A stretch of 57,950 nt of DNA, counting the filler, from Sphacelaria rigidula (Eukaryota): the NCBI GenBank assembly GCA_964200075.2. It is 6 parts of 6 records of this genome, joined end to end, with 100 filler letters (N's around TTAATTAATTAA, not from the genome) between each part and the next. Parts side by side here need not be neighbours in the genome. Positions count along the whole stretch, not along the records: positions 38,703 to 48,276 come from CAXNAA020008175.1; 5 more parts are not named here. One strand, 5' to 3'. The notes under the pieces were generated by a model. The model was not told the DNA's origin and made no database searches. It saw only the letters and a program-made list of their open reading frames with translations. The position numbers were made by a program, and so were the translations under genes. Below are positions 9,578 through 48,989 of the stretch, one piece after another. The first letter of the stretch is position 1; each line of letters starts with the position of its first letter.

Positions 9578-9677
9578 NNNNNNNNNNNNNNNNNNNNNNN
9601 NNNNNNNNNNNNNNNNNNNNNTTAATTAATTAANNNNNNNNNNNNNNNNNNNNNNNNNNNNNNNNNNNNNNNNNNNN
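9578..9677. other. Artificial contig spacer (same at 19254-19353, 28929-29028, 38603-38702, 48277-48376)
   Basis: 44 N + TTAATTAATTAA (stop codons in all six frames) + 44 N, five times. Confidence 0.99.
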
Positions 9678-12600: not shown

Positions 12601-13150
12601 CCGACTTGCGAGTGAAGAATAAGACGTGCATTATAAAACAAATATATAATACGCGTCCGTGCGCGTTTTTCTAATTTCGCGAGGATGTCAGATGACGAGT
12701 GAATCAAGCACTCCTCACGTATTTCTCGAGATTGCTGTGCCAAACTTTTTCTCTTCATTTCGTGCGACATTCCCTCGACTGGAGCGTAAGTGTACGAAGT
12801 GAATCTCCGCTTGTGCGCAAGTACGCGCGAGGAAGTGTACGCTCGAGTTGATCGACGAGCCATCCTACGATGGGGGGTGGGGGATTTCGGGCCACTTCTT
12901 CTACGAAGAAGCCACTATAGAGTCGTCCTACGACAGGGAGAATGGCGTTTTGGGCGTCGTCCTGCGCGAAACAGTCGCTTTGAAGCGATGTTGCAAGCAG
13001 CGAATTGCGTACAAATGCTCTTGTTATCAGAAGCACACACACCTGTCCACACAATAAGACCCTCTTATTTCGCTGAACGAGATATCCCTTCCATTTCGTC
13101 TTCTTCATTTTTCTCTTCTTCTACATCTCTCTTTTTTGTCGTTAGCATAC

Positions 13151-13959
13151 CACAGCCCGGACATAGACATGGAATAGAGAAGCGAACCATCCCTTTTCTT
13201 TAACCTACCATAACACAGCCCAGACGAAAAGATGAAATAGAGAAGCTAGCCCTGCTCTTTCTTTAATTTACCATAACACCGCCCGGACATAGACAAGTAA
13301 TGACGGAGTTAACCATCATTTTTCCTTAACCTACCGGGACACCGCTCGGATATAGACACATGGAATGAAGAAGCTAGCCGCGCCCCGGTGGTGTAATGGT
13401 CCGACTGTCGCCATTTGGGTGGAGAGAACGGGGGTTCGATTCCCGGTGCGTTGGGTTCTTTCTTCGTAATGTATGATTTCCACCGTGGAAAGCGGGAGAA
13501 CGTGAGTAACCAAAGTAGTCGACTGGATTTGTGTGACGTGAATTGACGCGGTGCGGGAGTGCTGTCCCAATCCGCGAGACCAAAATGAAAGGCACGTACC
13601 GGGGGGGAGATGGGTTGATTCTTCGAGATCACAGACTCATCCCGAAGAAGGGGAGGGGTTCAAAGGGTGAGGAAAAAAAAAACTGCTCTTTCTTTCACGT
13701 GCCAGAACACAGCCCGGATATAGACAAGGAATAGAGAAGATAACCATCCCTTTTCTTTAACTTACCGTAACACAGCCCGGGCGTAGACATGGAATGAAGA
13801 AGCTAACCCCCCTTATTCTTCAATCTATCAGAACACAGCCCGGACGAAGACATGGAATAGAGAAGCTAACCCTCCTTTTTCTTTCACCTACCATAATACA
13901 GCGTAGATGTAGACAAGAAATCAAGAAGCTAATCCTCCTTTTGCTTTATCCTACCAGCA
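13151..13959 (+). repeat. 63-bp minisatellite, 8 diverged units, unit 4 split by a SINE
   Basis: Unit cacagcccggacatagacatggaatagagaagctaaccatcccttttctttaacctaccataa starts at 13151, 13214, 13277, 13340, then 13708, 13771, 13834, 13897. Confidence 0.9.
13377..13682 (+). mobile_element. tRNA-derived SINE, family A (tRNA-Pro-like head), full length with A tail
   Basis: A box tggtgtaatgg (13389-13399), B box ggttcgattcc (13433-13443), loop tttgggtg like tRNA-Pro(TGG), no acceptor stem, ends in A10. The body is shared with 25840-26139. Confidence 0.8.
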
Positions 13960-14899: not shown

Positions 14900-17800
14900 G
14901 AAAGGTGGATGGAGAAGTAAAGAGTGAACGGGTGAAGTATTAGTAGTGCTGGTATTCGGAGTACGTAGCGATATGACAAGAATAGAGTTTCAAAGGAAAT
15001 GCAATGGAGTTGGCCTATACTGTTTGGCAAGAGGAGAGGTAGAAATGGAGGGAGAACACTTCTGAGTCATCCTGAAACAGAGCGCGAGCACGGAGCGGGA
15101 AAGGATAGAGACAAGTAAGGTGTCGGCATGGGTTAGAAGGGTAGGATGGAGAGTATGCCTAGCTAATGGAACGACACACCTAGGACGTAGTCCACGGGTA
15201 AAGGGAGGGGGAGAGGGGCAGGAACAGGAAAGCGCCCGGAAGGGGAAGGGTAGGGAACATAGCGGCCCAAAGAAAATGGACAAAGACCAACGCAGAAACG
15301 GGAAGAACAACCAAGCATATAAAAGACAAGGAGAAGTGCTGTTAGTGGGAGAGTTTCTTGCAAGGGTAGGAACAGGAGGTCAACTGGATGATATCATTGG
15401 GCAATGCGGGCAAGGTAAGAAGAGCACGTATGGGGTAGAAATGCTGAAGTTCCTTGAGCGTAACGAGATGAAGACGCTGAGCGATAGAGCACAAAAGCCA
15501 GAGACTCAATGGGCATGGACAAGGAAATGCAAAGGAAAGAAGAGAGAACGCTCCGTTCTTGACTATATAGTGGTAGAGTATGGAAATGGTACACAAATGC
15601 AAGTACATGTATGCCCGGAGGACGTGGGAACTACAGATTATATCCTAATATGGACAGAAAGCCAACGGACGAGAGCTAAAATAATTAGGCAGGGTAGGAA
15701 GTTGTACAAATAGAGAATCGATAGACTCGATAAGGAAGAAAATCGGCGAGAGTTCCAAGAAGAGATGGTCAATAATGCCGTGAGAGGTTCCGAGCTGTTG
15801 GAACGCGTAGGTAGAGTTGATACCGAAATGGAAAGGAATAGGGTGGGAACAGATGGTCAAGAACACAATGAGTAAAGTCCTAGAAAAGAAGCTGATTGTA
15901 TGCAACAGAGCAGTAAAATGATGGGATGAGGAACTGAAAAATGTTATCAGAGTAAGGAGAGAGGCCCACGCGAGATGCATATCGATTAAAACTACGGCAG
16001 GATGGGAGGAGTATGCTAAAGCTCGAAAGGAAGTGAAAACGATGGTACAGGAGAAGAAGAAGGGACTAGCTCTATGGGATGATGTAGTGAGAAAACGAAT
16101 GGAGATTTCGACGGCGGGATGAAACAAAATGTGGGAAGGGATAAAAGGGATAACGGGAAACCACGCAGGTAAGTTGGACAAGGGGACAGCCACACTCCGG
16201 GCACAGAACGGTAAAATGGCCAGTAGTTCGAAGGGAAGGAGAGAAGTACTAGTCGAGCACTACCGTAAACTAGGAACACCAGAAACACACGCGGAGTTCG
16301 ACAAGGAATTCGAAGAAGAAATCAACGTGTGAGCAGAGGCGACTGTAGAGACGACGAAACGGGAGGATATAGGCTCGACAGAATTGCAAAGTTTACCAGA
16401 GATGAAGGAAAGAAGTGCATAGCTAAACTCAAGAACAGAAAGGCAGCAAGGGCAAACGAAGTAGTGAATGAATCTCTGAAGAACGGGAGAGAAGGAATGG
16501 TTACCATGATGGTTATGCTGTATAACTGGATCTGGGAAAACGAGTACACACCCAAGAGGTGGAGAGAAGGGGTCGTCGTCAATCTTTTTAAAAAACTAGA
16601 CAAGGCTGACCGAGGAAATTATGGAGGGATAACGCTACTGAGTACGGCAGGGAAAAAATTCTGTAAGAGTTACTGGGCACGGTAGGGAAAACCTTCTGTA
16701 AGATTCTGAACGATAGAGTAGAAGCGATGCTAGAAAAGGAAGACAAAATCAGTGAGGGGTGAGCAGGAGTAAGACCAAACCGTAGTTGCGTAGACCACGT
16801 GTGCACACCAGGTAAGACTGTTCGGGGTTGGAAACACACCGGGCTGACAACGTACTGCTTCTTTCTGGACGTGCAAAAGTCTTGTGAGACAGTATGGAGA
16901 AAGAGGTTGTGGAAATAGTCGTGGGAAGCTGGGATCAGAGGAAAGATGTGGAGAATGGTGAAGAAGATAACAGAATGTGCCAAAAGTGCCATGATGCCAG
17001 ACGGGGCAAAATTCGAATATTTCGATATCTAACAAGGAGTTGCACAAGGATGTACATTATCACCCACTTTGTTCAAGGTATTTATTAATGACCTGATAAT
17101 AGCAATAGAAGCAGAAAAGCAAGGGGTTCCGGTGGGTGAAGATATGGTACCAGGATTGATGTTCGTGGATGATTTTGTGGGGNNNNNNNNNNGGGACACC
17201 AGAAGGACTACAGACACAGATAGACAAGGCGCTAGAATACACTAGGAAATGTAGAGTGACAGCGAACGTTAACCAATGTGTGGTACTTGTCTGTAACGAA
17301 GATAAGGAGAATCTAGTAGGGTTCAAATGGAATTGGGGGGAGGAGGAATCGCCGGTCGTAGACCAGTATCCATACTTTGGCGTAGAGATCTCAAAAAACC
17401 GTTCTTGAGATGCACACATGAACAAAGTAATGGAAAGGGTAAGGCACAGATAGGCAGGTTGGACGTGATCCTCAGAGACTCGCACTTAAACACTAGGACT
17501 CGTTGCATCCTGATAAACGTGATCGTAACAAGGCTGTCATATGCAGGAGAAGTATGGGAGGGGAACGTGAAGTTGGTGGAGAGGGTAGAAACAGTGCAGA
17601 TGCCAGCAGCTGAGAAGATACTTGGATGCTCGAAAACGACGAGTAATGCAGCATAGAGAGCAGAGTTGGAAATGTACTGACTTGAACAAACAGAGACGTG
17701 AGAAAATTGCGATGGCAAAAACGCGTAAAGGACATGCAGAGGAAGGGATTGCCGGCTATAGTTGATAAGGATGTATGGAAGAAATCACGAAAGGGCGGGC

Positions 17801-18150
17801 TGTAATAAGGTGGGATAAAGAAGTCGAGAAAGTATGGAAGGAGGTAAGAGGAAACCGAGACGAAATACTGTCCATAGGTGAAGGCGCGGAGTACACGACA
17901 AGAGAAAAAGACATTATGGAAATAAGGGGGAAAGGAGCGCTCAGACACAAAGTAGACGAGGAAGAACACCTGAAGATATACGGGTGGTTGAGGGAGGGGA
18001 TAGGGATAAACACATATCTGCATGGCCCCATGGACGCGGCGAAAAAATTGAAACTGCGATTTCGGGTGGGGGGTCTGGATCTGCCAGAGAGAAGAAAGAG
18101 ATATACCAGCAGTCGAAAGGAGGAGGGCGTAGATGCACATAATTGTTTCT
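14900..18150 (+). mobile_element. Decayed LINE ORF2 (APE endonuclease + reverse transcriptase)
   Basis: Endonuclease remnants: VLLVGEFLARVG, SVLDYIVV, TTDYILIW. RT remnants: WREGVVVNLFKK..D...NYGGITLLS, GVRPNRSCVDHV, CFFLDVQK, GVAQGCTLSPTLFKVFINDL, LMFVDDFV, YPYFGV. Many stops and frameshifts; purine-rich sense strand. The 5' boundary is approximate. Confidence 0.9.
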
Positions 18151-20238
18151 AGCTCGACGGCCATAGACGTGACGGAGGTGGGTTGACGCATGGGTTGGCA
18201 CTATCTTACAACCTCCATCCGGGATACGGATAGCCATTTGGGACGCTCATGTGAGGTCTCAAACTTTGGGCTGGGATATGTAGCTGGGGTATCCAAGTGC
18301 AATATCGGCATCAATCTGGCACGCGGTTATCCAACTAATACTTTACACACGTGCATCTAGTGCGTGTTCATCTGGGACATCCGTCTCTACGCGCACAGCA
18401 TTACGCTCTATTAGCATGGACCAAATCACATGTACGGCCACCGGCCACCAGCGGGAAAATTGCTTACGGGCTTGCCGCACGTCAAGGTTGGCACTTGGAA
18501 TTGGGTCGCGCAAATGGCGTAAATGTGCACCGTGGCCAAATCGCGGACATGGCACTTTGACCTCGGGAGGCGTACATGTCTGGGATATGTCATATTTAGG
18601 TGGACTTTCCAGATGGGCATCCACGCGCTGGATGGATGTCCATGTTCGTAATGAACGTGCCATTTGGTATCATGTCCGGATGGGCGCGCCAAGGTCGATA
18701 TGACTGATAGCGACGGGAGGTGCAAGTGAGAGTCAATGACACACTAGGAAAGGAACACAATCCAGCAGTCTTATAGCGGCAGAAGAAACGACAGTGAACG
18801 CTGCTGACGTTGTGCAAGATTTGCGCACAGTTTCACAAATCCTGCGCATGTATTGTTTCGCAGTAACGTAGACCCGCTCCATTGCCCCGAGGTACTGTAA
18901 AGGTGCCCCTTTGTTGTTTATGTCGAGCCCAGTCCAGACCGGTGTTCTCCCCCTCACCCTGCTTACTCTTCGGCGCTTCCAGGGGACTTATACGACATTA
19001 GTGGCTACAATAAAAAGGATCGTACGAGGAAATGCAACTACCGACTAAGTGATTTCTGAGTTGCCCACGTGCTGAAGTAAATTCGCGTGTGGGTCAATCT
19101 CTTCTCGTTAATATGTGATGAATGTCAATGAGAGGTTATCATGATTGTGGCACTTGAACTGACCCCCCAGGGGTCCTGGTCAGGCGAGAACCCGGCGTGC
19201 TCCATCCCGGCTTTGTAGGGGCGGACCCCCGATGGGGTTGGCGTCGGTTGGCGNNNNNNNNNNNNNNNNNNNNNNNNNNNNNNNNNNNNNNNNNNNNTTA
19301 ATTAATTAANNNNNNNNNNNNNNNNNNNNNNNNNNNNNNNNNNNNNNNNNNNNGGGCATTCAGGCCGAAGAAATCGTGAATTCGGTGATTTTGAGTCGTG
19401 ATGATTCGTCCTAACCGTGAAATATTCAAGTGCGAGCCGCGTGCACGAAAACCGTAGGTTGATTTTGACATGAACAGAAAAAAAGGCAACCGCCCCAGGC
19501 TCTCACCGACTATGCTAGTTCGATTGTTTTGTATGCCACTATAGTGTAGAAAAACTCGGTGAGAGCATGATCGGTAATATCCAAAACCGCCCCTGGCGTG
19601 ATCAGTCAGTCCGTCTTGATGTCACTTACAAAGGTCGTGGTGTCGCCTGTAAGGGGACGTTGCCCACCTCTCCTTACAGCTTCACAGCGGCCCTTCGCAC
19701 AAGACACTGTCGGTTTCGACTCGGCTGTTCGGCGACATCTTGCGCGAGAAGGCGTTTTCACCCCAATTGCGGCAACCTCAAAGAAATAACGAAGCCTGAA
19801 CGGTGCGTGTTACCTGTGCTACCGCGAGTGTCGACCTATTCGCGCGCCGACTTGAACGACTATGCTGGCAAGATCTGCCGCTGCCTCCGCGCCGGTCTTG
19901 TATTGTACCCTCTATAATTGACATTAGAAAATGAAGAATGTTTCGAAAACAGTTTGGCCGTGATGCATAGTCATTCTTTCAAGCCATGCAGCGCTCAAAA
20001 CGCCTTGGGTCGCCGGTACCGTTGCGGCAACACCTACTTGCAGCCTCAATCTACGCATGCGTGACGCTTCGGCATCATCAGACGCCAGGTGCGCTGTGGT
20101 TGGACGCTTTATCCCCAAAAATACTGCCTCCATATTATTGAAAAGCAACAGCATTGAGTCAGCAGTACAGTACTTTTGTGCACAGAGCGGTGCCCGGAGC
20201 TCTGAGAACATGGTGCCAAATTAGTCATTAACTCCCAG

Positions 20239-28838: not shown

Positions 28839-29401
28839 GTAAGGGTGCCGTTGGTGACGTGTATCCCCCCCCCCCTCCCCTTCTCCACGCACTCACCCAC
28901 CCCGTGTGCTGCTGCTCATGCTGCTGCTNNNNNNNNNNNNNNNNNNNNNNNNNNNNNNNNNNNNNNNNNNNNTTAATTAATTAANNNNNNNNNNNNNNNN
29001 NNNNNNNNNNNNNNNNNNNNNNNNNNNNTGCATCAATCTGACCACCCCCCCCCCCCCCGGCAGAGGGGGCCCCGCCGGAGGTGCCGTGCTGGAGGCATGT
29101 TTTTACGCGATTTTTCTTCACTAGATCTAAAACATTCGTTAATATTGGGCCAATCTTCAATTGTAAAGCCAGTACCGGTGAATAATGGTCTGAAACAAAC
29201 CATTATCCAAAATTTCCGCATCACCTTCACCATTATTACCACGATCATGATAATGGCCAGTTATAGCTGGTACCATTTCCGAGCTCTAACTATTTTCGAA
29301 AGCGCACTTCGCTGTTCTTGTTGTGGCTTTCATTGTGACCTCTAGCATTTCTGGCTGCCGTGTGTGACAGTTTACGTATTGTGAGTGGTCTCGCTGCGTA
29401 A

Positions 29402-37805: not shown

Positions 37806-38702
37806 CTGCACGAAAGTGAGAACCGCAATGAGAACAAAGCGGAGCACAAGTTTACAGTCTCACCGCTTTCACCTGAAAGCAACATCAAACGGTTTGCAGC
37901 TTGGAAGAAGCAGGATTTCACTCGTGTCACACACATGTTCCCCCGCGAGCGTTGAGAGCGATCGCAAATTTTATGCCGACTCATTTGTATTCATGGTGGC
38001 GAAACAGGGAAGCAGGATTTCCTCAGACCGCTGGAGCGGCCACGCGAATATGGTAAAGAAATGTTTTTGTGAAATTGAGAATCTACGATACGATTGAGGT
38101 GAGGCTAGCGGCCGAATGTGCCTGCATCAACAAGGGACAAACGCTGACCTTGCACATTGATGCAAAATCCTGCCGGCAAACCCAACACGAGCTGGGCCAG
38201 CCTAGAGGCTGCACGAACGTTTGCAGTCGGATGTGCCGGCCAATATTTGGAGTGTGATGAAACCTGGGAACTGATTATTATTGCCCTTGACTCACGGGAA
38301 AAGGAAAAAACTCAATGAATCATCCTACGATAGGGGTGGGGGTATTTTGGGGCATTTGTTGCTCGAAATTTCGAGTCAGATCGTCGTTGAGAGCAGCAAC
38401 GGTCGAACAAGCGTGTTGTGTATCAAAAGCGCTCATCCAAACTGCCTGCCACCGTTTGGAATCGAATACAAGTGCAACGCATGTGTGGAAGGATGTCTGG
38501 CACACCTATGAGCCTCTTATTTCGTGCAACCAAATACCGCCGCGCCCCACCCCCTCCACCCCGATCCTCCCCGAAAGCAAGTAAATGTCATTGCCGCATT
38601 TGNNNNNNNNNNNNNNNNNNNNNNNNNNNNNNNNNNNNNNNNNNNNTTAATTAATTAANNNNNNNNNNNNNNNNNNNNNNNNNNNNNNNNNNNNNNNNNN
38701 NN

Positions 38703-41700
38703 CTGGTGATGTGTCGATGCCGGGGGTGTCGGCAGATGCGGATGTGTCGATGCCGTCGGGCGACGTAGATGTGAAGGCACCGGATGTGGATATCAAGACC
38801 GGAGACAGTTCTCTGACCGCGGGTCTGGCGGCAGCGGGTGCGGCGACTGTGGGCGCGATCGGCGTCGGGCTGGGCAGTCTGGCGGGCAAGGGCGACAAGC
38901 CTGAGGTGAGGATATGTGTGCTTTCCTTACCTGCATGGCCGGCAACGTTGTCGAAAATGGTTGGTGTTTCGTAGCAATAATTTGTTTTCTGTTTTGAACA
39001 GGGTTCATATAGTTGGATTCGGTGTTCGCGTTTTGAGATGAGGGGTCGTTGGTGCTTGAAATGCAGGATCTTGGGAACTACCGTCGTGTCCGACTGTTTT
39101 GGCGAAACGTGGTACTCACGGCCTTCGTTGTCTCCGACGGGTTCAAAATCCAAGCGTCTTTTCGGACCTTGAAGATTTTGTTGTCGTGTTTACAAGTGTG
39201 CCGTAGAAACCCTCAACAGTCTCACCGGCGTAAGTTGTCGTTGTAATCTGGTTCACGAGCCACCCCGTACAACGTTCGTATGTCCTTCAGGTGATATTTA
39301 GTTTGAAGGGCGGTCGAAGGAGTCACTTCGTCGCCGTTCTTGACGCTATGGAAAGTCGTGGCACGCTTGCAAACAGTCATCTCGTCTTGGTTGTCTCTCT
39401 TTCATTACCCGTAGCAGTGTCGCTGACGTCTAATCTTTTTTGGCATGATTATTGCTGCTGAAGCAGGTACACGATGCCGACATTTCGGTTGATTCGCCAT
39501 CGCTAGACGTGAAGAAGCCGAAGAGGAGCTTCGGCTTTGGCGGTATGTTCAAAAAGCCATCCATCAAAGCAGGTTTAAAGGTTAGTGCGTGATCATCTCT
39601 GCGTGGTTTCGCGTTCCGCGTTTGCTTGACACGTCGTATTGAAGATGATGGCGACTGCGTGCTCAAGCGGTACTGTTGAAAATCAACTGCAGTGGGTTAG
39701 GAGATGTCGGACACGCTTTGGTTTGTTGATCTCTTGCGTGTTCCCATGACTGGTTACGATACAGATGCCGGACACTGGTCCTGATATGAGCGGCGATGTG
39801 TCTGTACCTGAAGTCTCGGCGGATGCATCCCTACCGAGCTTGAGCGGCGATGCATCACTACCAGACGTTTCGGGAGATGCGAATCTGCCGGGTGTGGGCG
39901 CTGACGTCACTCTACCTTCGGGTGGTGTGGATGTAGACGTGCCTTCTTTGAGTGGTGGGGTAGATCCGCCGTCTGGCGACGTGTCCCTCCCGTCAGTTTC
40001 CGGCGATGCTTCTCTTCCATCTGGAAAGGTTTCCATGCCTGGCGTGTCGGCAGACACGGGTGTGCCGTCGGGTCCGGTGGATATTCCTGTGCCGGACGTG
40101 TCGGGGGATGTTTCTTTGCCGTCCGGCTCTTTAGATGTGACGGCACCGGATGTGGATATCAAGACGGAAGACAGTTCTCTGACCGCTGGTCTGACGGCAG
40201 CGGGAGCGGCGGCTGTAGGAGCCGTTGGCGTTGGGCTGGGTAGCCTTGCGGGCAAGGGGGACAAGCCTGAGGTAATGGTTTGTTATACTGCCTTTACCGG
40301 TGTCTCTGACTGTTCGGTTCCGGTGAAAATCTTCGCTGGCGTTATAATCAAGTGTCGTGTAAGAGTGAGTAATTATGCTCCCCGTACGGGTTGCGATGAT
40401 TCTTGGGCGTTTTTTTTCGCCAAACTCGTGCATTTGGCGTGGGGGTAGAAATTGTGTACTTATCGCGACTGACGTCTCGGGTTTATTCGCAGTCACCACG
40501 GCTCGGCACCGCAAGTATGACCGTTGCGAGATACGTCGACGCTGTTTCCTGGGGTAACCAGTCTATAGGATGTCTATTTGCGAGCTACGCCCTTCAAAGT
40601 ATGATGATTTTCCCACCCCGTTCGTCAATCATGGCTAGCTTCGAGGTCAGTATGGGCGCTTACACCGCAATGGCCAATCGAGCCGCGATCAAAGCAAGCG
40701 TGGCTCACTGCTGACTCTTACGTCGGTGCTAGCCGCAGCATCCTCCTTCACTTCGGCTACATTGATGTCCGTCGTTGCTGAAGCAGGCGCCTGATGCCAG
40801 CATTTCCGTCGAGACCCCATCGGTTGACGTGAAAAAGCCGAAGAAGGGCTTCGGCTTTGGAGGGATTTTCAAGAAGCCCTCCTTCAAGGCCGGCGTGAAG
40901 GTCAGCATATGGGTTATCTCCAAGCGGTTGTTTTCCATAGCGCTTTTACTCAGCACAAAAGTTTCAGATTGGTTGTGTGATGACAAACTCAACCCGAACA
41001 AGTAACAATGAACCATGCCGCATGATGAGTTGTTGGTGCCGCGCGGTGCTCACGTCCGCGCAATTTTGTTGATCTGCTCTTGGCACCGCCGCCCGGCTTG
41101 ACTCGACATGATACAGATGCCGGACGCCGATGAGACGGCTCCCGATGTGAGTGGCGACGTGTCTTTGCCGCAAGTCTCTGCAGATGCGGTCTTGCCGAGC
41201 GTGAGCGGAGATGTGCCTCTACCGGAAGTCTCGGGTGATGCTACGGTGCCGGGCGTGAGCGTTGATGCCACGCTGCCTTCTGGCGGCGTGGACGTGGACG
41301 TCCCCTCGATTACTGGTGGGGTAGACCTGCCGTCTGGCGACGTATCCCTCCCCTCTGTATCAGGTGACGTTTCTATCCCGTCTGGAGAGGTGTCGATGCC
41401 TGGCGTGTCGACAGATGTGGGTGCGCCTTCCGGTTCTATCGATTGTGCTGTGCCGGGTGTGTCCGGCGATGCGGCTTTGCCGGAATTGGCGGCGGATGTG
41501 TCGTTGCAGTCGGGCGGCGTGGAGGTGACTGCACCGGATGTAGACATCAAGGCGGAGGACGGTTCTTTGAGTGCGGGTCTGGCCGCAGCAGGAGCGGCGA
41601 CTTTGGGCGCGGTCGGCGCCGGGCTGGGTAGCCTGGCGGGCAAGGGCGACAAGCCTGAGGTGGGGATGCGCGTGTTGTCGGTGTTGTCTGATTCGCGCTG

Positions 41701-44700
41701 CTTAGTGTCATGAATCGGTAGGAGAGTATGCTTCTCCTTGTCACGCCTCCTGTCAAGTTGTTCGGGGGTGCTGAGAACCGGCACCAAAGTATGCTCACCG
41801 TGCTTGTTGTCCCATAAGTTTGTGTCTGTTTGTTTCAACTCCGTGCGTTTGGCGTAGACGGTTGAATTTTCATAAGCTCGACGTCCGGTGTCGCCTGGAC
41901 CTGGTGCCCCGTGCCCACGGTTGAACATGAGAAATGAACAAATGCAGCTGACTATTTCATGTGTTGTGGCGACCGTGCAATCGAAACTTGGAAACGATGT
42001 TCGCTGTTGCGTCATTTCGCAAGCTACTCAGACAAGACACCATGAATCTTATCGAGGTGTATCGAGCACAGGTGTTGGCGAGAGTCACTGTGTGGTCGCC
42101 CCGAGTGCTGACTGCTACCGGGCAGCGTTGGAGACAGCTCCTGAGTTGTACAATGGTCTCCTCAACTTTGGTTTGCTACTTTGTGTTCTGCTGCTGATCT
42201 AGGTGCCCGACGCCAGCATCTCCGTCGAGTCGCCATCGCTTGGCGTGAAGAAGCCGAAGAAAGGCTTAGGATTCGGTGGAATCTTCAAGAAGCCTACCAG
42301 CAAGGTTGACTTGAAGGTCAGTGTGTTGCTTGTCTCCGCATGACCATACTATCATACTGTGTGGAGTTGACACTATGGCGTTTGGTCCGTGATACTTTGG
42401 TCTACACGATGCTCACCCCTTGCTCTAGGGATTTACACGTCCAATACTGTAAGCCCTCTGCATGACTTGGCGGGCATGGCCGTGATATCCGTGGGTAACC
42501 TATTTCATCTCCTATGGACGCTGTGACTTGATACGGTACAGGTGCCGGACGCTGATGTGAGCGGCAATGTGTCTTTGCCGCAAGTCTCGGCGGATGCGTC
42601 CTTGCCGAGCATGAGCGGCGATGTGTCATTGCCAGATGCTTCGGGAGATGTGAACTTGCCGGGTGTGGGCGCTGATATCACTCTTCCTTCGGGCGATGTG
42701 GATGTAGACGTCCCGTCAGTCACGGGCGAGGTGGATCTGCCGTCTGGCGACGTGCCCCTCCCCTCGGTATCGGGCGACGTTTCTCCTCCATCTGGAGAAG
42801 TTTCTATGCCGGGTGTGTCGGCAGATGTTGATGTGCCAGCCATGGCGACAGATGTGTCTTTGCCGTCGGGCTCTGTAGATGTGACGGCACCGGATGTTGA
42901 TCTCAAGGCGGAGGACAGTTCTTTGACTGCGGGTCTGGCTGCAGCCGGAGCGGCAGCGGTCGGCGCGGTCGGGGTCGGACTTGGCAGCCTGGGAGGCAAG
43001 GTTGACAAGCCTGAGGTGGGGATGTGATTGCGTGTAAACTTGGTGGGCCCCATGCAGTGAGAGTCAGAGGGCCGCTTTGCTGATGTGTATAACACGGCGT
43101 GATGAACGTGAGCAGTATCTGTTTGCCGTGCTTGTTGTCCGGGCTGTCCTTGCCGTCCCATCAACAGTGTTTCTGTGAAATCCTGTGTGTTCGGCGTGTG
43201 CGAGCAAACATAAGTACTCGTGGTGACCGTTTCTCTCTCGCCTTGACCTCAACTCAACATATCCCGGCACCGGACACATTTTAACGGTAGCGTTGTAAGA
43301 CCTTTGAACCCTGGCACTGGCGTAGCCCGTTCGCACTAAATGACATGTGAGGCTCCAAACAAGGTAAGACCACCCCTTTCGAGCGTGATAGACTCGGGTG
43401 TTTCAAAGAGTCAAAATACAAAATGGCCACCCGAGTTCTGGAGACAACCAGGTAATGCTGCGAACAGCGTTGCCGGCTGATGGGGCGTATATGAGTTTTA
43501 CCCGGATCTCCCTCATCGATTCGGCTGCTACTGTGTCTGTATGTTGCTGCCGAAGTAGGTGCCCGATGCCAGCATCTCCGTTGAGTCGCCGTCGCTAGGT
43601 GTGAAGAAGCCCAAGAAAGGCTTCGGGTTCGGCGGGATGTTTAAGAAGCCTTCTGTCAAGGCTGGGTTGAAGGTCAGTGTGTAGCTCGTCTCCGCGCGAC
43701 TATTTTACACATGGCGTGGACTCCACACCATGGTGCTTCATGTCTCGTGAAATTGTGTACACAATCATAACAGGTTGATATTAACTGTTGGGCACAAAAC
43801 CGCGGAAGGTGCGCTTGGCTCGCGTACATGCATTTTGCCTTGTTGACCCGTTCCGTTCCCGTTGACCCTCACGAATTGATGCGGTACAGATGCCGGACGC
43901 TGATGTGTCAGGTCCCGATTTGAGTGGCGACGTGTCATTGCCAGATGTTTCGGGAGATGCAACCCTACCCGGCGTGAGCGCTGATGTTGAACTACCTTCG
44001 GGCGGTGTGGATGTAGACGTCCCTTCCATGTCTGGGAATGTGGATCTGCCGTCGGGTGATGTCTCTCTTCCATCTGGAGAGGTGGACGTTGCTGTGCCGG
44101 GTGTGTCGGCAGATGCGGATGTGTCGTTGCCGTCCGCCGACGTAGAGGTGAAGGCACCGGGCGTGGACATCAACACCGAGGGCAGTTCTCTGGCCGTGGG
44201 CCTGGCCGCAGCGGGTGCTGCAACTGTCGGCGCGGTAGGAGTCGGGCTGGGCAGCATGGCGGGCGAGGGCGACAAGCCTGAGGTGGGGATGTGTGGTGTG
44301 GTCTCTACAGGTTGTTAGTGCTGCTCATCAAGTGCGAGGCCTCTCATCAGAGTGTGACCGAGATTTCACGTAACCGTAGCAGATTGCGCTCGTCGTGGAT
44401 ATTGTCTACGTTGTCGTTCCTGTATCACGCCCAGTGACTCACGAAACGACTGTACGGGTGACCTCGCGTGCGGGTTGACTTTTGGACAAGAAGATTTTAT
44501 CTAGCGGGCGACTGGGTTGTACATATCGTGGCAGGTAAGGCGAGAATGGGTGCTTGGCATTGTTCTCATTCGCGAACTGAACAATGGAGGTTTATTGAAT
44601 GACGGTGTGTCGGACATGAAAAGAGCTTGTAGTTACGTTCGAGCCGCCCCCAATGGTGAAGGCAGCGTTGCGAACAAACTTGAAGCGGTACTGAGTTGTA

Positions 44701-47700
44701 CATGAGCACCACTCCACCTACCCTCCTTGACTTTGGCTGCTTCTGCGTGGTTGCTTGTACAGATTCCCGAGGCCAACATATCCGTCGAATCACCATCACT
44801 ACACGTTAAGAAGCCATCGAAGGGCTTCGGTTTCGGTGGATTCCTCAAGAGGCTCTCCGGCGACGGTAGTGCAAAGGTCAGTGAGTCGTATTTTTCCCAA
44901 CGGCTCTCGTGTATATCGTGTCGACTCGATATGATGGTATCCTTGCTCGTTGTGCAACGGCGTTACGACCGGTACAGGTCACGGTCTGATGTTCGTAACT
45001 TTTCGTGCAATAGGATGAACCCTGCGCACGACTTATGTGCGTGACATCTGTAGCCGACCCGTTCCGTCTCCGCTGGCTCTCATATTTGACCACGATACAG
45101 ATACCGGACGACGATGTGACGGTTCAGAATGTCGGTGGCGATGTGTCTTTGCCAGAAGTCTCGGCAGATGCGTCCTTGCCGAGCGTGAGCGGCGATGTGT
45201 CATTACCCGATGTTTCGGGAGGTGCAAACCTGCCCGGTGTGGGCGCTGATGTCACGCTGCCCCCGGGCGGTGCAGATGTTGACGTATCTACACCGACAGT
45301 CTCGGCAGATGTGGCCCTGCCTAGCGTGAGTGGCGATATGTCCATTCCAGATGTATCGGCAGGTGCGTCGGTGCCGGGTGTGGGTGCTGATGTTACGCTG
45401 CCCCCGGGCGGTGTGGATGTAGACGTTCCGTCGATGACAGGCAAGGTGGATCTTCCCTCTGTCTCGGGCGACGTTCATCTTCCCTCTGGAGAGATGTCAG
45501 TGCCGGGCGTGTCGGCAGATGTGTCTTTGCCGTCGGGCTCAGTCGATGTTGCTGTGCCGGACGTGTCTGGAGATGCGGCTGTGCCGGGATTGGCGGCGGA
45601 TGTGTCTTTGCCTTCGGATAGCATAGAGGTGACGGCACCGGATGTGGATATCAAGACCGGGGATAGTTCGTTGACCGCGGGTCTGGCCGCAGCGGGAGCG
45701 GCGACTGTGGGCGCGGTCGGCGCCGGGCTTGGCAGCTTGGCGGGCAAGGGCGACAAGCCTGAGGTGAGTCTGTGCGTGGTGTTGTTGTTGCCGGTTGCTG
45801 ACAAGGTGTGAAAAGGGCCGTCAGGTCCTTCACCTGTGTGTTACGGGACCAGTATGTAACTGGGTTCCATCAATCGGTGGGGGACCGTACTTGTTCTGGT
45901 TACGCGAGCCGCAGCTGCTGTGCCGTGGCCGGTGCGTCTCGAGAACCCCGCGTTTTTGGCGTGCGTGAGGAGATTTGCGAAAATGTAGACTGGCCTTTGT
46001 GCCAGGCGGTCGGCGAGATGACGGGGAACAACGTCAGCGTTTGACGTCATTTTATTTGCGCGCCCCACTGGACAAAACGAGATGAGTCTTCTGTTGGTTT
46101 GTTGACACAACACGCTCGGCGAGAGTAACAATGTGGCCAATTCCAGTGCAAGAGACAGCTGGACATGCTGCTCACAGCTTTTCCTACTATGGATCTGTTC
46201 GTGACTTCTGTACTACTATAATCGAGTCTGGCTGCCTCTCGTGTGTGTTGTTGAAGCAGGTGCCCGATGCCAGTATCTCCGTCGACGCGCCATCGATAGA
46301 CGTGAAGAAGCCAAAGAAGAGCTTCGGGTTCGGCGGGATGTTCAAGAAGCCCCCCGGCAAGCCGGGATTGAAGGTCAGAGTGTGGTTTTGTGCTTCGATG
46401 TGCGTTGCTCATATCGCGTGTGGCTTTGACAAGGTTATATTTCGTGAGTTGAGTCATACGTACGCGTGCGGAGCAGGTCGCGGTTTGATATAGACCCAGG
46501 CCGCGGTGTGGGTACTTGTGGTGCCCGTAATCAATCTTACCCGTGTCGGGTGATCGCCTTGACTTGGCATGATACAGATGCCGGAGGCCGACGTGACGGT
46601 CCCCGATGTGAGCGGCGACGTGTCTATACCGGAAGTCTCGGCAGATGCATCGGTGCCGGGCGTAGACGCTGATGTGACGCTGCCCTCAAGCGGGGTCGAC
46701 GTGGACGTTCCGTCCATGACGAGCGAAGTGGATCTGCCGTCTGGCGATGTTTCCGTTCCGTCGGTATCGGGTGGCATTTCTCTTCCCTTTGGAGAGGTCT
46801 CCGTGCCTGGCGTGTCGGCAGATGTGGCTGTGCCATCCGGTTCGGTGGACGTTGGTGTACCAGGAGTGTCCGGCGATGCGACAGTTCCAAATATGGCCGG
46901 GGATGTGTCGTTGCCGTCTGGCGGCGTCGAGGTGACAGCACCAGATGTGGACATCAAGACGAAGGACAGTTCGTTGACCGCGGGTCTGGCCACAGCGGGA
47001 GCGGCAGCTGTGGGTGCGGTCGGCGCCGGGCTGGGTAGCCTGGCCGGCAAGGGCGACAAGCCCGAGGTGAAGATATATCTGGTGTCTCATCCTTGGCCGA
47101 CACTGTGTAGTATCCATTACGTCAAATAGTAGTGTTTCACTGGGCCTCGGGTACCGTTTGGAAGTTGTGCTGTCGTGCTTGTTGTTCGAGTTGTGGTTGA
47201 TGTCCCGTGGCAAATTGCTCTCGGAAACCTCGTGTGTTCGGCGTGAATGGATAAACCTGACCACCTGTTGAAGCTGTTGTTGTGTCACGTGCTGGTGATG
47301 TTGGCGTCTTGGGAGGTCAACGTGGGTCAGGGCCGGAAACATGACGGAATGCGACGGCAAGAACTGTGCACGCTGACGTTGATATTGACGATACGCGTTT
47401 CTCTTTTTCGCCAGCTCAGTTCGAACGATGCAAGATGATTTTGTTTGTCAAACGATGAGCATGGAGAGTAGGTGTGAGGCCGCCACCGGTGCTAGAGGGA
47501 ACCGGATAGCGTCTCGAACGAACGGTATCATATCGGCTAAACTTATTTTACTCTCGTTGAACCAGCTGCCATTGTACATGTGTTGAAGCAGGTGCCCGAT
47601 GCCAGTATCTCCGTCGAGTCGCCTTCGCTAGACGCGAAGAAGCCGAAGAAGGGCTTCGGGTTCGGCGGAATCTTCAAGAAGCACTCCGTCAAGGCTGGGT

Positions 47701-48276
47701 TGAAGGTCAGTGTGTGGCTCGTGAGAGCGCGGTCCCTCCGCATGCCATATCGACTTGACACGTTCCTGGTACGTGCATTGTGCATGGGCACATGAGATCG
47801 CTGCAAGTCGCGCTCGAGGTGAGTCCTATTTTGTACAAGGTGAGCGATATAGGTTCGCGTATGCGTGTTTGTAGTTGACCTTGCCCGTCTCCGACGATTC
47901 TAATCACTTGCCATTGTACAGAGGCCAGACGCTGATGTGACGGTTCCCGACGTGAGCGGCAACGTTTCCTTACCGGAAGTCTCGGCCGATGCGTCCTTGC
48001 CGAGCGTGAGCGGCGATGTGTCAGTGCCAGATGTTTCGGGAGGGACAAACCTGCCGGGCGTGGACGTAGACGCCCCTTCGATGACCGGAGGGGTGGATCT
48101 GCCGTCTGGCGGCGTTTCCGTTCCATCCGTATCGGGAGATGTGTCTCTTCCGTCTGGTGATGTGTCGATGCCGGGGGTGTCGGCAGATGCGGATGTGTCG
48201 ATGCCGTCGGGCGACGTAGATGTGAAGGCACCGGATGTGGATATCAAGACCGGAGACAGTTCTCTGACCGCGGGTC
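38703..48276 (+). CDS. Internal part of a giant repeat-protein gene made of alternating long acidic exons and short basic exons; no start or stop on the contig; about 1475 codons visible
   Basis: Long exons: <38703-38905, 39765-40271, 41117-41659, 42542-43015, 43890-44282, 45101-45763, 46578-47066, 47922->48276. Short 114-nt exons: 39467-39580, 40787-40900, 42203-42316, 43559-43672, 44763-44876, 46260-46373, 47592-47705. All complete exons have AG/GT ends, are multiples of 3, are phase 0 and lack stops. Exons stay alignable while introns have diverged. Confidence 0.88.
38703..48276 (+). repeat. Tandem array of about 7 units of ~1.2-1.5 kb (short exon, ~184-225 nt intron, long exon, ~480-561 nt intron)
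   Basis: Each unit repeats the motifs gtgaagaagcc..aag..gcttcgg.ttcggcgg and ggcaagggcgacaagcctgag|gt. The seven short exons start at 39467, 40787, 42203, 43559, 44763, 46260 and 47592. Confidence 0.95.
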
Positions 48277-48989
48277 NNNNNNNNNNNNNNNNNNNNNNNN
48301 NNNNNNNNNNNNNNNNNNNNTTAATTAATTAANNNNNNNNNNNNNNNNNNNNNNNNNNNNNNNNNNNNNNNNNNNNTGGACCGCGGTGCTGGTAGTCCAT
48401 CTGGACCACGTGTACTTTTTTTAAGTGAACATTGATGCCGATTCAGCAGGTGACCTACTCTCGCGGTCTAACGGTTAACTCCTCCTGCGGAGTTTTGGGG
48501 AGGAATAGACTTTCGCTCTGTGTCACTGTTTCGTATCTTCTCTGCAATAGAGAAATGCGACTCCAACCCCATTTTAGTGTTCAATCCCAAAATTTAAAAT
48601 CGGATGTTTACAGTAGAACGCCTTTTTATTTTTTTTCCAGTTTCCCGTATTTTTCTTTTTATTAATTTATTTTTGGTACATACTAACATGCACCTCTCTA
48701 GATAAATAGTATTAACGCTCCGCCGTCATGCCTGCCCTGCATAAATGTTTTGCAAGACTCAAAACCCCAAGAAAGCCAAAGGTTATAACAAAAGCGTACA
48801 CGAAATAGGTACACGTGTTAAAGAAACCGGACCAAACATACACCAATCACAAATAAATAAATAAAAACTCAATCAGAGGCTTCCCAGCAAACATTAGGTA
48901 CCCTGCACATGAAAGTAAACTCCTCCTCCAAGAGTGCTGACTGCTACGCTTGTGGGTCACATACCGATTCCGCCCCCCCCCCATCCTTT

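Follow-up and report, generated by a model that had tools for sequence, protein, structure and literature searches.

What kind of protein is encoded when a basic exon of fixed length alternates with acidic exons of variable length is the question raised by one part of a 57,950-nt stretch of DNA from Sphacelaria rigidula (assembly GCA_964200075.2; the whole stretch, filler included, is called the window here). Six pieces of 9574-9577 nt make up the window, with spacers of 44 N, TTAATTAATTAA, and another 44 N between consecutive pieces (at 9578-9677, 19254-19353, 28929-29028, 38603-38702, and 48277-48376), and the exon array fills precisely piece 5 (38703-48276, 9574 nt). The piece ends are cuts and not gene boundaries, and the neighboring pieces are uninformative on the repeat gene; both ends of the gene lie outside piece 5, which is open on either side. 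Our results establish that piece 5 comes from the interior of a genuine, expressed nuclear gene belonging to a brown alga or close relative. Its seven and a half tandem units have two phase-0 exons each, and splicing joins these in sequence to give a single frame of at least 1474 codons. The encoded protein may be a cytoplasmic scaffold, a reading that is weighed below against its alternatives.

Fifteen exons were located in 38703-48276 by a stop-to-stop listing of open reading frames (ORFs) and a motif scan: seven short exons of exactly 114 nt (S1-S7), in strict alternation with six complete long exons (L1-L6; 507, 543, 474, 393, 663, and 489 nt) and two cut long ones (L0 and L7). They are given here with the evidence for each, where X1-X3 are sequencing runs whose contigs were placed on the piece.

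38703..38905, + strand: L0, long exon cut by the piece start; last acidic repeats, then the Gly/Ala tail to GDKPE; joint 38905/39467 in X3.
39467..39580, + strand: S1, short basic exon, 114 nt, 38 amino acids (aa), net charge +4; joints 38905/39467 (X3) and 39580/39765 (X1-X3).
39765..40271, + strand: L1, 507 nt, acidic repeats then Gly/Ala tail; joints on both sides in X1-X3.
40787..40900, + strand: S2, short basic exon, 114 nt; 766-nt L1-S2-L2 RNA contig in each of X1, X2, and X3.
41117..41659, + strand: L2, long exon, 543 nt; translation and RNA contigs; Pfam DUF4097 at 23.6 bits (cut-off 22.9).
42203..42316, + strand: S3, short basic exon, 114 nt; joint 42316/42542 in X1-X3; joint 38905/42203 in X1 may be L2/S3.
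42542..43015, + strand: L3, long exon, 474 nt; translation and RNA contigs; loose end past 43018 continues as the S4 start.
43559..43672, + strand: S4, short basic exon, 114 nt; only loose RNA contig ends at 43018 and 43888, matching its first and last letters; uncovered by X1-X3 contigs.
43890..44282, + strand: L4, long exon, 393 nt; translation; joint 44282/44763 in X1-X3.
44763..44876, + strand: S5, 114 nt, most diverged short exon, net charge +3, tail LKRLSGDGSAK; spliced on both sides in X1-X3.
45101..45763, + strand: L5, long exon, 663 nt, internal 141-nt duplication; translation; Pfam DUF4097 at 34.8 bits (cut-off 22.9).
46260..46373, + strand: S6, short basic exon, 114 nt; joint 46373/46578 in X1 and X2.
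46578..47066, + strand: L6, long exon, 489 nt; translation; joint 47066/47592 in X1 and X2.
47592..47705, + strand: S7, short basic exon, 114 nt; translation; S7/L7 junction present in a variant copy alone, where 8 letters at the joint differ.
47922..48276, + strand: L7, long exon cut by the piece end; translation; in-frame length variants in RNA and DNA runs.

Each of the 14 introns is in phase 0 and bounded by GT and AG, and the length of each complete exon is a multiple of three. The spliced frame runs through 1474 codons with no stop, and reading through the introns brings in 3-10 in-frame stops per intron. Exons make up 46% of piece 5 and have a GC content of 61.6%, against 51.1% for the introns, which are of two sizes: those following a long exon span 480-561 nt and those following a short exon 184-225 nt. 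A repeat finder independently returned 7-8 copies at a spacing of 1204-1497 nt, and the long exons can be aligned end to end, with differences in the form of insertions or deletions of whole repeats. The first-pass annotation of this DNA had described the same alternation, exon lengths, and phase, all of which were found again, along with its open frame of ~1475 codons. It had also spoken of a very long modular protein; the periodic module stands, and the giant size is established as at least 1474 residues, both ends lying beyond the piece.

Within the introns that lead from a long to a short exon, a 75-nt stretch (43124-43198 versus 47171-47245) is 71% identical, which is above the intron background. 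An antisense gene drawn from long minus-strand ORFs (e.g., 41050-42027) was considered and rejected: it is the + strand that has GT..AG introns and is matched by the relatives. When the spliced sequence is read in antisense, one frame meets just 2 stops over 1473 codons, which is a by-product of the repeat codon pattern.

Eight sequencing runs from one organism (X1-X8) contain words sampled from the sequence, 34-39% of them in X1-X4 and 47-96% in X5-X8, and contigs of X1, X2, X3, and X5 were placed on piece 5. The X1-X3 contigs contain ten GT..AG joints, of which nine are predicted junctions between neighboring exons, out of 14 such predictions. Six of these occur in all three runs (39580/39765, 40271/40787, 40900/41117, 42316/42542, 44282/44763, and 44876/45101), two in X1 and X2 (46373/46578 and 47066/47592), and one in X3 only (38905/39467). 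The joint 38905/42203 from X1 may represent L2/S3, as the last 27 letters of L0 and L2 are identical. The L3/S4 and S4/L4 junctions appear solely as loose contig ends that continue as the first or last letters of S4, and the L5/S6 junction (45763/46260) was not seen in the contigs of X1-X3. Three intron bins are at zero depth in X1-X3. The DNA-like run X5, by contrast, covers all introns and has none of the ten joints; one of its contigs, 4022 nt long, equals the window over 41632-45653 with no difference. By these differences in joints and intron depth, X1-X3 show RNA behavior and X5 DNA behavior, all from one organism; the assignment of X1-X3 to RNA rests on their spliced contigs, and the run records name none of the eight runs as RNA. 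Spliced transcripts, which the first-pass annotation had put forward as a check, are thus found, with nine of the 14 predicted introns skipped exactly in X1-X3 and all introns kept in X5.

The same contigs carry the array beyond what is visible here. Loose ends past L0-type and L2-type tails continue into short-exon starts other than those of the piece-5 neighbors, and the array extends past piece 5. An exact direct repeat of 123 nt lies at the two termini of the piece (38703-38825 = 48154-48276), so that the outermost long exons, L0 and L7, are near-identical copies. The X5 contig depth, a rough measure of copy number, is 587-1240 over the L0/L7 tail compared to 57-73 over most of piece 5, which suggests either several more near-identical units elsewhere or a collapsed or looped assembly. 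L7 is present in both RNA and DNA runs in in-frame variants, one with 24 extra letters at 48058-48066 and one without 48106-48153 (48 nt), and the units change by gain or loss of entire short repeats.

The units are old and constrained. Nei-Gojobori comparisons between units, with ratios taken as mean dN over mean dS, gave a mean dN of 0.168 and a mean dS of 0.947 for the short exons (ratio 0.18), 0.085 and 0.580 for the tails, i.e., the last 132 nt of the long exons (ratio 0.15), and 0.179 and 0.781 for the acidic parts (ratio 0.23). Between units, nucleotide identity is 67-88% for the short exons and 77-91% for the tails; within an intron class, identity in the aligned columns is 42-56%, compared to 37% for shuffled introns. 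The high dS (0.6-0.95) and the near-random introns indicate that the duplications are old, and the ratios, well under 1, indicate that all three protein blocks are under purifying selection. The earlier proposal of an old, selectively maintained array with diverged introns is therefore upheld.

Each unit encodes three blocks and is 169-259 aa long (38 + 131 to 221). The first block is acidic, with 94-184 residues, a net charge of -18 to -28, and 0-1 Lys/Arg; its consensus repeats are PSVSGDVSL (9 residues) and PSGDVSV (7), and the proline-to-proline spacing is 9 residues in 62 of 94 cases and 7 in 13 of 94. The second is an uncharged Gly/Ala/Val/Leu core of 26 residues with glycine-zipper spacing, followed by KGDKPE. 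Its mean Kyte-Doolittle hydropathy is 1.3-1.5, with a best 19-residue window of 1.5-1.8; the latter value is borderline for a membrane span, and conservation in the core is confined to small residues. The tail that contains this core (...SLTAGLAAAGAATVGAVGVGLGSLAGKGDKPE) is 75-85% identical between units, and its Gly, Ala, and Leu positions are invariant in the seven copies, with Gly at i, i+4 spacing. Both the 9/7-residue repeats and the shared tail had been noticed in the first-pass annotation and are reproduced here. The third block comprises 38 basic residues with 8 Lys/Arg (6 in S5), 2-4 Phe, and a net charge of +3 to +6, around the core VKKPKK-G-F-G-FGG-I/M-F. The spliced protein as a whole contains 15% V, 14% G, 14% S, 11.5% D, 10% A, and 10% P. 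No enzymatic domain is recognizable, and the conserved feature is the periodic pattern of three physico-chemical blocks. The FG-type motifs of the basic block (GFGFGGI/MF in the window, e.g., at 43559-43672, and GLFGGLFG in Ectocarpus) recall the GLFG repeats of nucleoporins, at the level of the motif only.

The same module is found in other brown algae, a group in which the first-pass annotation had proposed to search. Among longer proteins, the best matches to L5 are unnamed brown-algal proteins: P0001 from Ectocarpus fasciculatus (1202 aa, partial; E 3e-66), P0002 from Ectocarpus sp. 12 (E 2e-25), and P0004 from Ectocarpus sp. 8 (E 9e-21), all of which have the same three blocks in the same order. 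Among shorter proteins, the long-exon profile added Ectocarpus sp. 13 and Pylaiella littoralis, and a cluster look-up added a member from Scytosiphon promiscuus; the named relatives (Ectocarpus, Pylaiella, and Scytosiphon) are all Ectocarpales. A profile of the seven tails run against 1.84 billion representatives matched 174 proteins at E <= 0.001. When the tail and short-exon profiles were applied to 300 collected proteins, 47 had the tail, 15 the basic block, 14 both, and 48 either, and the basic block followed the tail by 10-20 residues in all 14 proteins carrying both. The family patterns are SLTAGLAA.G....GA.G...GL.G.DKP for the tail and VKKPKK..FGG.F for the basic core, and a comparison of the core VKKPKK...FGG..F between the window, Ectocarpus, and Pylaiella shows an identity of at least 80%. 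All listed carriers except P0001 are shorter than 470 residues, which marks them as fragments of gene models or ORFs. A tree built from 61 tail stretches places the seven copies of the window in a starred group (99/98) with the unnamed P0056 and P0090, apart from one group with all named Ectocarpales units and from a third group made up of 28 unnamed rows. These groups indicate that units cluster by lineage.

Three Ectocarpus models (P0002, P0004, and P0256) have TPR_12/TPR_10 repeats after the last unit. No TPR was found in the window, where tblastn with the Ectocarpus N-terminus and TPR ends matched acidic repeats only. Two further models deserve mention. P0001 has short non-repeat inserts at its unit borders that resemble intron read-through. 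In P0084 (ENA, 286 aa), one uninterrupted frame with intron-like flanks spans all three blocks, from the acidic block through the tail to the basic block. This hints, as a lead only, that an intron separates tail from basic block in the lineage of the window alone and that Ectocarpus-like species have a one-exon unit.

This is an uncharacterized protein family known so far only from brown algae. We found no description of the three-block repeat gene in the literature searched, in line with the first-pass annotation, which had recognized no described family. The family is nevertheless already in the databases as unnamed Ectocarpales gene-model fragments, and its acidic repeats match two known repeat types, DUF4097/Toastrack (L5 and L2 of the three exons tested) and AHNAK/periaxin.

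The likeness to AHNAK lies in the acidic repeats. The L5 search also returned 16 animal proteins (AHNAK, AHNAK2, periaxin, and PDZ-domain proteins) with E-values of 2e-21 to 1.6e-4, and among proteins of 2105-5000 aa, 25 of the 27 matches were animal and none algal. Overall, the similarity to AHNAK repeats has E-values of 1e-9 to 1e-66; examples are a 4401-aa AHNAK2 (E 5.7e-66) and a shrimp AHNAK-like protein (best single stretch up to 65 bits). In a local control with 48 natural proteins, L5 matched 47, and L2 and L1 48 each, whereas reversed or shuffled versions matched none; the long exons score 40-300 bits on natural AHNAK-type proteins. Since reversed and shuffled versions are unmatched, the likeness reflects a directional motif and not composition. 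AHNAK, AHNAK2, and periaxin share with the algal protein a very long chain, tandem units of short proline-punctuated strand repeats (xVxxP, DVSLP-like), and a periodic charge. P0209 (EukProt, 302 aa) is an AHNAK-type repeat protein with a KGPKFKMPD pattern and without the algal tail.

The second likeness is to the bacterial Toastrack domain (DUF4097, PF13349), found in LiaG and YvlB. Two long exons score above the Pfam cut-off of 22.9 bits (L5 34.8 and L2 23.6) and L1 has no match, with the reservation that repeats inflate such scores. Many bacterial DUF4097 proteins match the acidic repeats at E 1e-10 to 1e-6, and hhalign against a bacterial DUF4097 profile gave a probability of 97.1% (E 5.6e-11) over 93 columns around the shared SVSGDV motif. 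The bacterial DUF4097 alignment itself had no match in a sequence search of the PDB. PF13349 also appears in the precomputed Pfam column for 9 of 18 non-Ectocarpus L5 matches, so this model reads AHNAK/periaxin repeats as well. The algal, AHNAK, and Toastrack repeats thus follow one short strand-repeat grammar, for which descent, transfer, and convergence are all possible origins. According to PMC11237479, which names the entries 4QRK and 4OPW for this domain, Toastrack is an intracellular right-handed beta-helix, often next to membrane-spanning segments, with a proposed role in the assembly of sub-membrane complexes.

At the level of gene layout, the closest precedent comes from the same lineage. 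Zambounis et al. 2012 (PMC3341825) screened Ectocarpus for phase-0 exons that follow one another at equal length, as in ROCO-LRR and NB-ARC-TPR genes, where every exon encodes a single LRR or TPR and sites are under positive selection. Those genes resemble the present one in being brown-algal, in having tandem phase-0 exons gained and lost in frame, and in the TPR end of the Ectocarpus homologues. They differ in that the cassette described here alternates 114 nt with 393-663 nt, has no LRR or TPR in the window, and is under purifying rather than diversifying selection (ratios of means 0.15-0.23). A two-exon cassette would escape the screen because fixed and variable exon lengths alternate; the few non-TPR/non-LRR candidates in supplementary table 2 may include the Ectocarpus homologue.

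What does such a protein do? The reading we favor, with a probability of roughly 0.4, is that of a cytoplasmic scaffold lying along a membrane. A peripheral membrane-binding element is expected because a Lys/Phe patch adjoins an uncharged stretch of small residues. The basic/aromatic patches would bind acidic lipids through electrostatics and insertion of Phe, and the adjoining Gly/Ala stretches might dip into one leaflet or zip together. The acidic repeats would form extended, beta-helix-like rods (Toastrack-like or AHNAK-like) that are repelled by the membrane and act as spacers or docking surfaces, and the C-terminal TPR domain seen in the Ectocarpus gene models would recruit partners. MARCKS-type effector patches, in which a short Lys cluster with Phe stands next to Ser, bind acidic lipids; compared by pattern only, the algal block is similar in its Lys/Phe cluster beside Ser and different in its FGG/GFG core (GLFGGLFG in Ectocarpus) and in occurring once per unit. 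Two features of the Ectocarpus models indirectly favor a cytoplasmic location: their TPR ends, and the absence of a hydrophobic leader at the start of P0001, which alone among the models has an N-terminus. The protein would thereby work like AHNAK, a giant periodic polyionic scaffold at the cytosolic membrane face, without belonging to its family. AHNAK itself relocates to the cytosolic face of the plasma membrane (PMC2171952).

Several observations count against this proposal. For P0085, the homologue from Pylaiella, the ESM Atlas model lacks structure (pLDDT 0.29, pTM 0.13), which weakens the idea of a folded rod but does not refute it; the Atlas has no entry for the window exon and gave no usable match for P0085. 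A sequence search of the PDB with the long-exon profile returned no match, and L1 lacks a Pfam DUF4097 match. The N-terminus of the window gene lies beyond the piece, making a signal peptide possible, and the N-terminus of P0001 is weak evidence, as this is a partial and visibly faulty model with intron read-through. The TPR is absent throughout the window, and the TPR fusions could be mergers of gene models with a neighboring gene. Finally, because Gly and Ala are so strictly conserved in the tail, specific packing, perhaps helix-to-helix or between strands, is a better fit than a simple lipid anchor.

The alternative that fares best is compatible with the scaffold reading and concerns the origin of the rod: the acidic region may be a true Toastrack beta-helix that came from bacteria and then expanded, its likeness to AHNAK being secondary. 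The Pfam scores of L5 and L2, the bacterial matches, the hhalign result, and the occurrence of PF13349 on AHNAK/periaxin repeats all speak for it, and the passing of Toastrack from bacteria to some eukaryotes has been reported (PMC11237479). We nonetheless consider it doubtful, because the case rests on one short motif (SVSGDV) that occurs many times over, and short repeats converge easily. The repeat period is 9 (and 7) residues in the alga and ~18 in the bacterial alignment, and the algal blocks are far more acidic, are many per protein, and alternate with two other blocks.

The main competitor to a cytoplasmic scaffold is a matrix protein that is secreted, serves structure or adhesion, and is organized along the lines of elastin, in which Lys-rich blocks of the algal protein would bind or cross-link anionic wall polysaccharides (alginate and sulfated fucans), Asp-rich repeats would bind Ca2+, and Gly/Ala blocks would self-associate. 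The Val-, Gly-, Ser-, Asp-, Ala-, and Pro-rich composition fits this picture, and the strict alternation, in a single phase, of hydrophobic/acidic with Lys-rich exons recalls the layout of the tropoelastin gene; the N-terminus out of view leaves room for a signal. A secreted protein is, however, at odds with the leaderless start of P0001 and with the TPR_12/TPR_10 ends of the three Ectocarpus models, repeats of a type known from intracellular proteins, even if both points depend on error-prone gene models. On this evidence a matrix protein seems unlikely.

Less probable again is a polytopic integral membrane protein, with a glycine-zipper transmembrane helix formed by each Gly/Ala stretch. The 26 uncharged residues, the 19-residue hydropathy maximum, the conserved Gly at i, i+4, and the basic residues after each stretch would suit such a helix. 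However, Gly and Ala dominate the stretch, which has only three Leu and 3-4 Val, a composition that is weak for membrane insertion. With one hydrophobic stretch per unit, moreover, the acidic (-18 to -28) and basic blocks would be forced onto alternate sides of the membrane, presumably breaking the positive-inside rule at every second unit, so that there is no consistent transmembrane topology.

It is very improbable that the protein is a genuine member of the AHNAK family, whether by common descent or by transfer from an animal. In favor of membership, animal AHNAK, AHNAK2, AHNAK-like, and periaxin-type proteins are the sole matches among long proteins, and the likeness depends on direction. 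In BLASTP, however, AHNAK-type proteins are only 25-31% identical, with many gaps, and share nothing but the periodic xVxxP pattern; where alignments extended into the Gly/Ala tail, hardly any residue was matched. The Gly/Ala tail and the KKPKK-FGG block occur in none of the AHNAK-type proteins collected, and the short exons match only three Ectocarpus proteins, besides scores of at most 10.6 bits on two fish proteins. A search for PDZ in P0001, the only homologue with an N-terminus, found no Pfam family, which is a weak test given that the model is partial. The AHNAK features compared here are those given in PMC10682155 and PMC8221568. AHNAK repeats lie in one giant exon, with units of ~128 aa (165 aa in AHNAK2), according to the former; the algal unit is split into two exons, with 14 introns in 9.6 kb, has three blocks over 169-259 aa, including the Gly/Ala stretch and KKPKK-FGG, and carries purely acidic repeats in place of mixed Lys/Asp ones. 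The named family members are confined to brown algae, and we found no published link between AHNAK and brown algae, Ectocarpus, kelp, or stramenopiles. Membership thus fails on the PDZ domain, the make-up of the unit, and the exon structure, even though the repeats themselves are similar.

A non-functional repeat, a transposon-borne array (which the first-pass annotation had named as a finding that would overturn its view), or an assembly artefact is refuted for the gene as a whole: the exact terminal repeat and a DNA depth over the end units of 4-9 times the single-copy level do indicate that the array includes a multi-copy part, where mis-assembly is possible, but spliced RNA contigs come from three runs, dN/dS is 0.15-0.23 at a dS of 0.6-0.95, the module is conserved in other genera, a DNA contig from another data set agrees with the window over its full 4022 nt, and the Pfam scans contain no transposon domain.

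The rest of the window adds little. Rfam returned no match on piece 5, and ten large ORFs from the other five pieces had no Pfam family, so these pieces give no context for the repeat gene. At 15001-18000 the + strand is strongly purine-rich (GC skew 0.35-0.37, AT skew 0.29-0.37), and the two large ORFs tested there have no Pfam match; a tandem repeat of 63 nt (also 126 nt) with 2-4 copies and 77-81% matches lies at 13146-13956.

Brown algae became multicellular independently of animals, and an expressed, strongly constrained, lineage-restricted giant protein joins the short list of their inventions, in a family that present annotation splits into unnamed fragments. Its motif-level likeness to both AHNAK and Toastrack provides a concrete case in which to ask if polyionic strand-repeat scaffolds arose by convergence or by transfer. 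Tandem phase-0 exon cassettes in brown algae also go beyond the LRR/TPR receptor genes, contrary to the conclusion of the genome-wide screen in PMC3341825, which concerns equal-length neighboring exons only. More speculatively, brown algae may have built their own AHNAK-like giant membrane scaffold, either from scratch or from a bacterial Toastrack seed, by combining an acidic beta-helical rod, a glycine zipper in or along the inner membrane leaflet, and a polybasic FG lipid clamp; dozens of units, maintained by selection and gained or lost as phase-0 exon cassettes, would then make up a tunable cortical tether for membrane mechanics or wound repair. In Ectocarpus, for which CRISPR editing is reported (PMC12853178), the conserved tail and the KKPKK-FGG motifs offer defined targets for tagging and knock-out.

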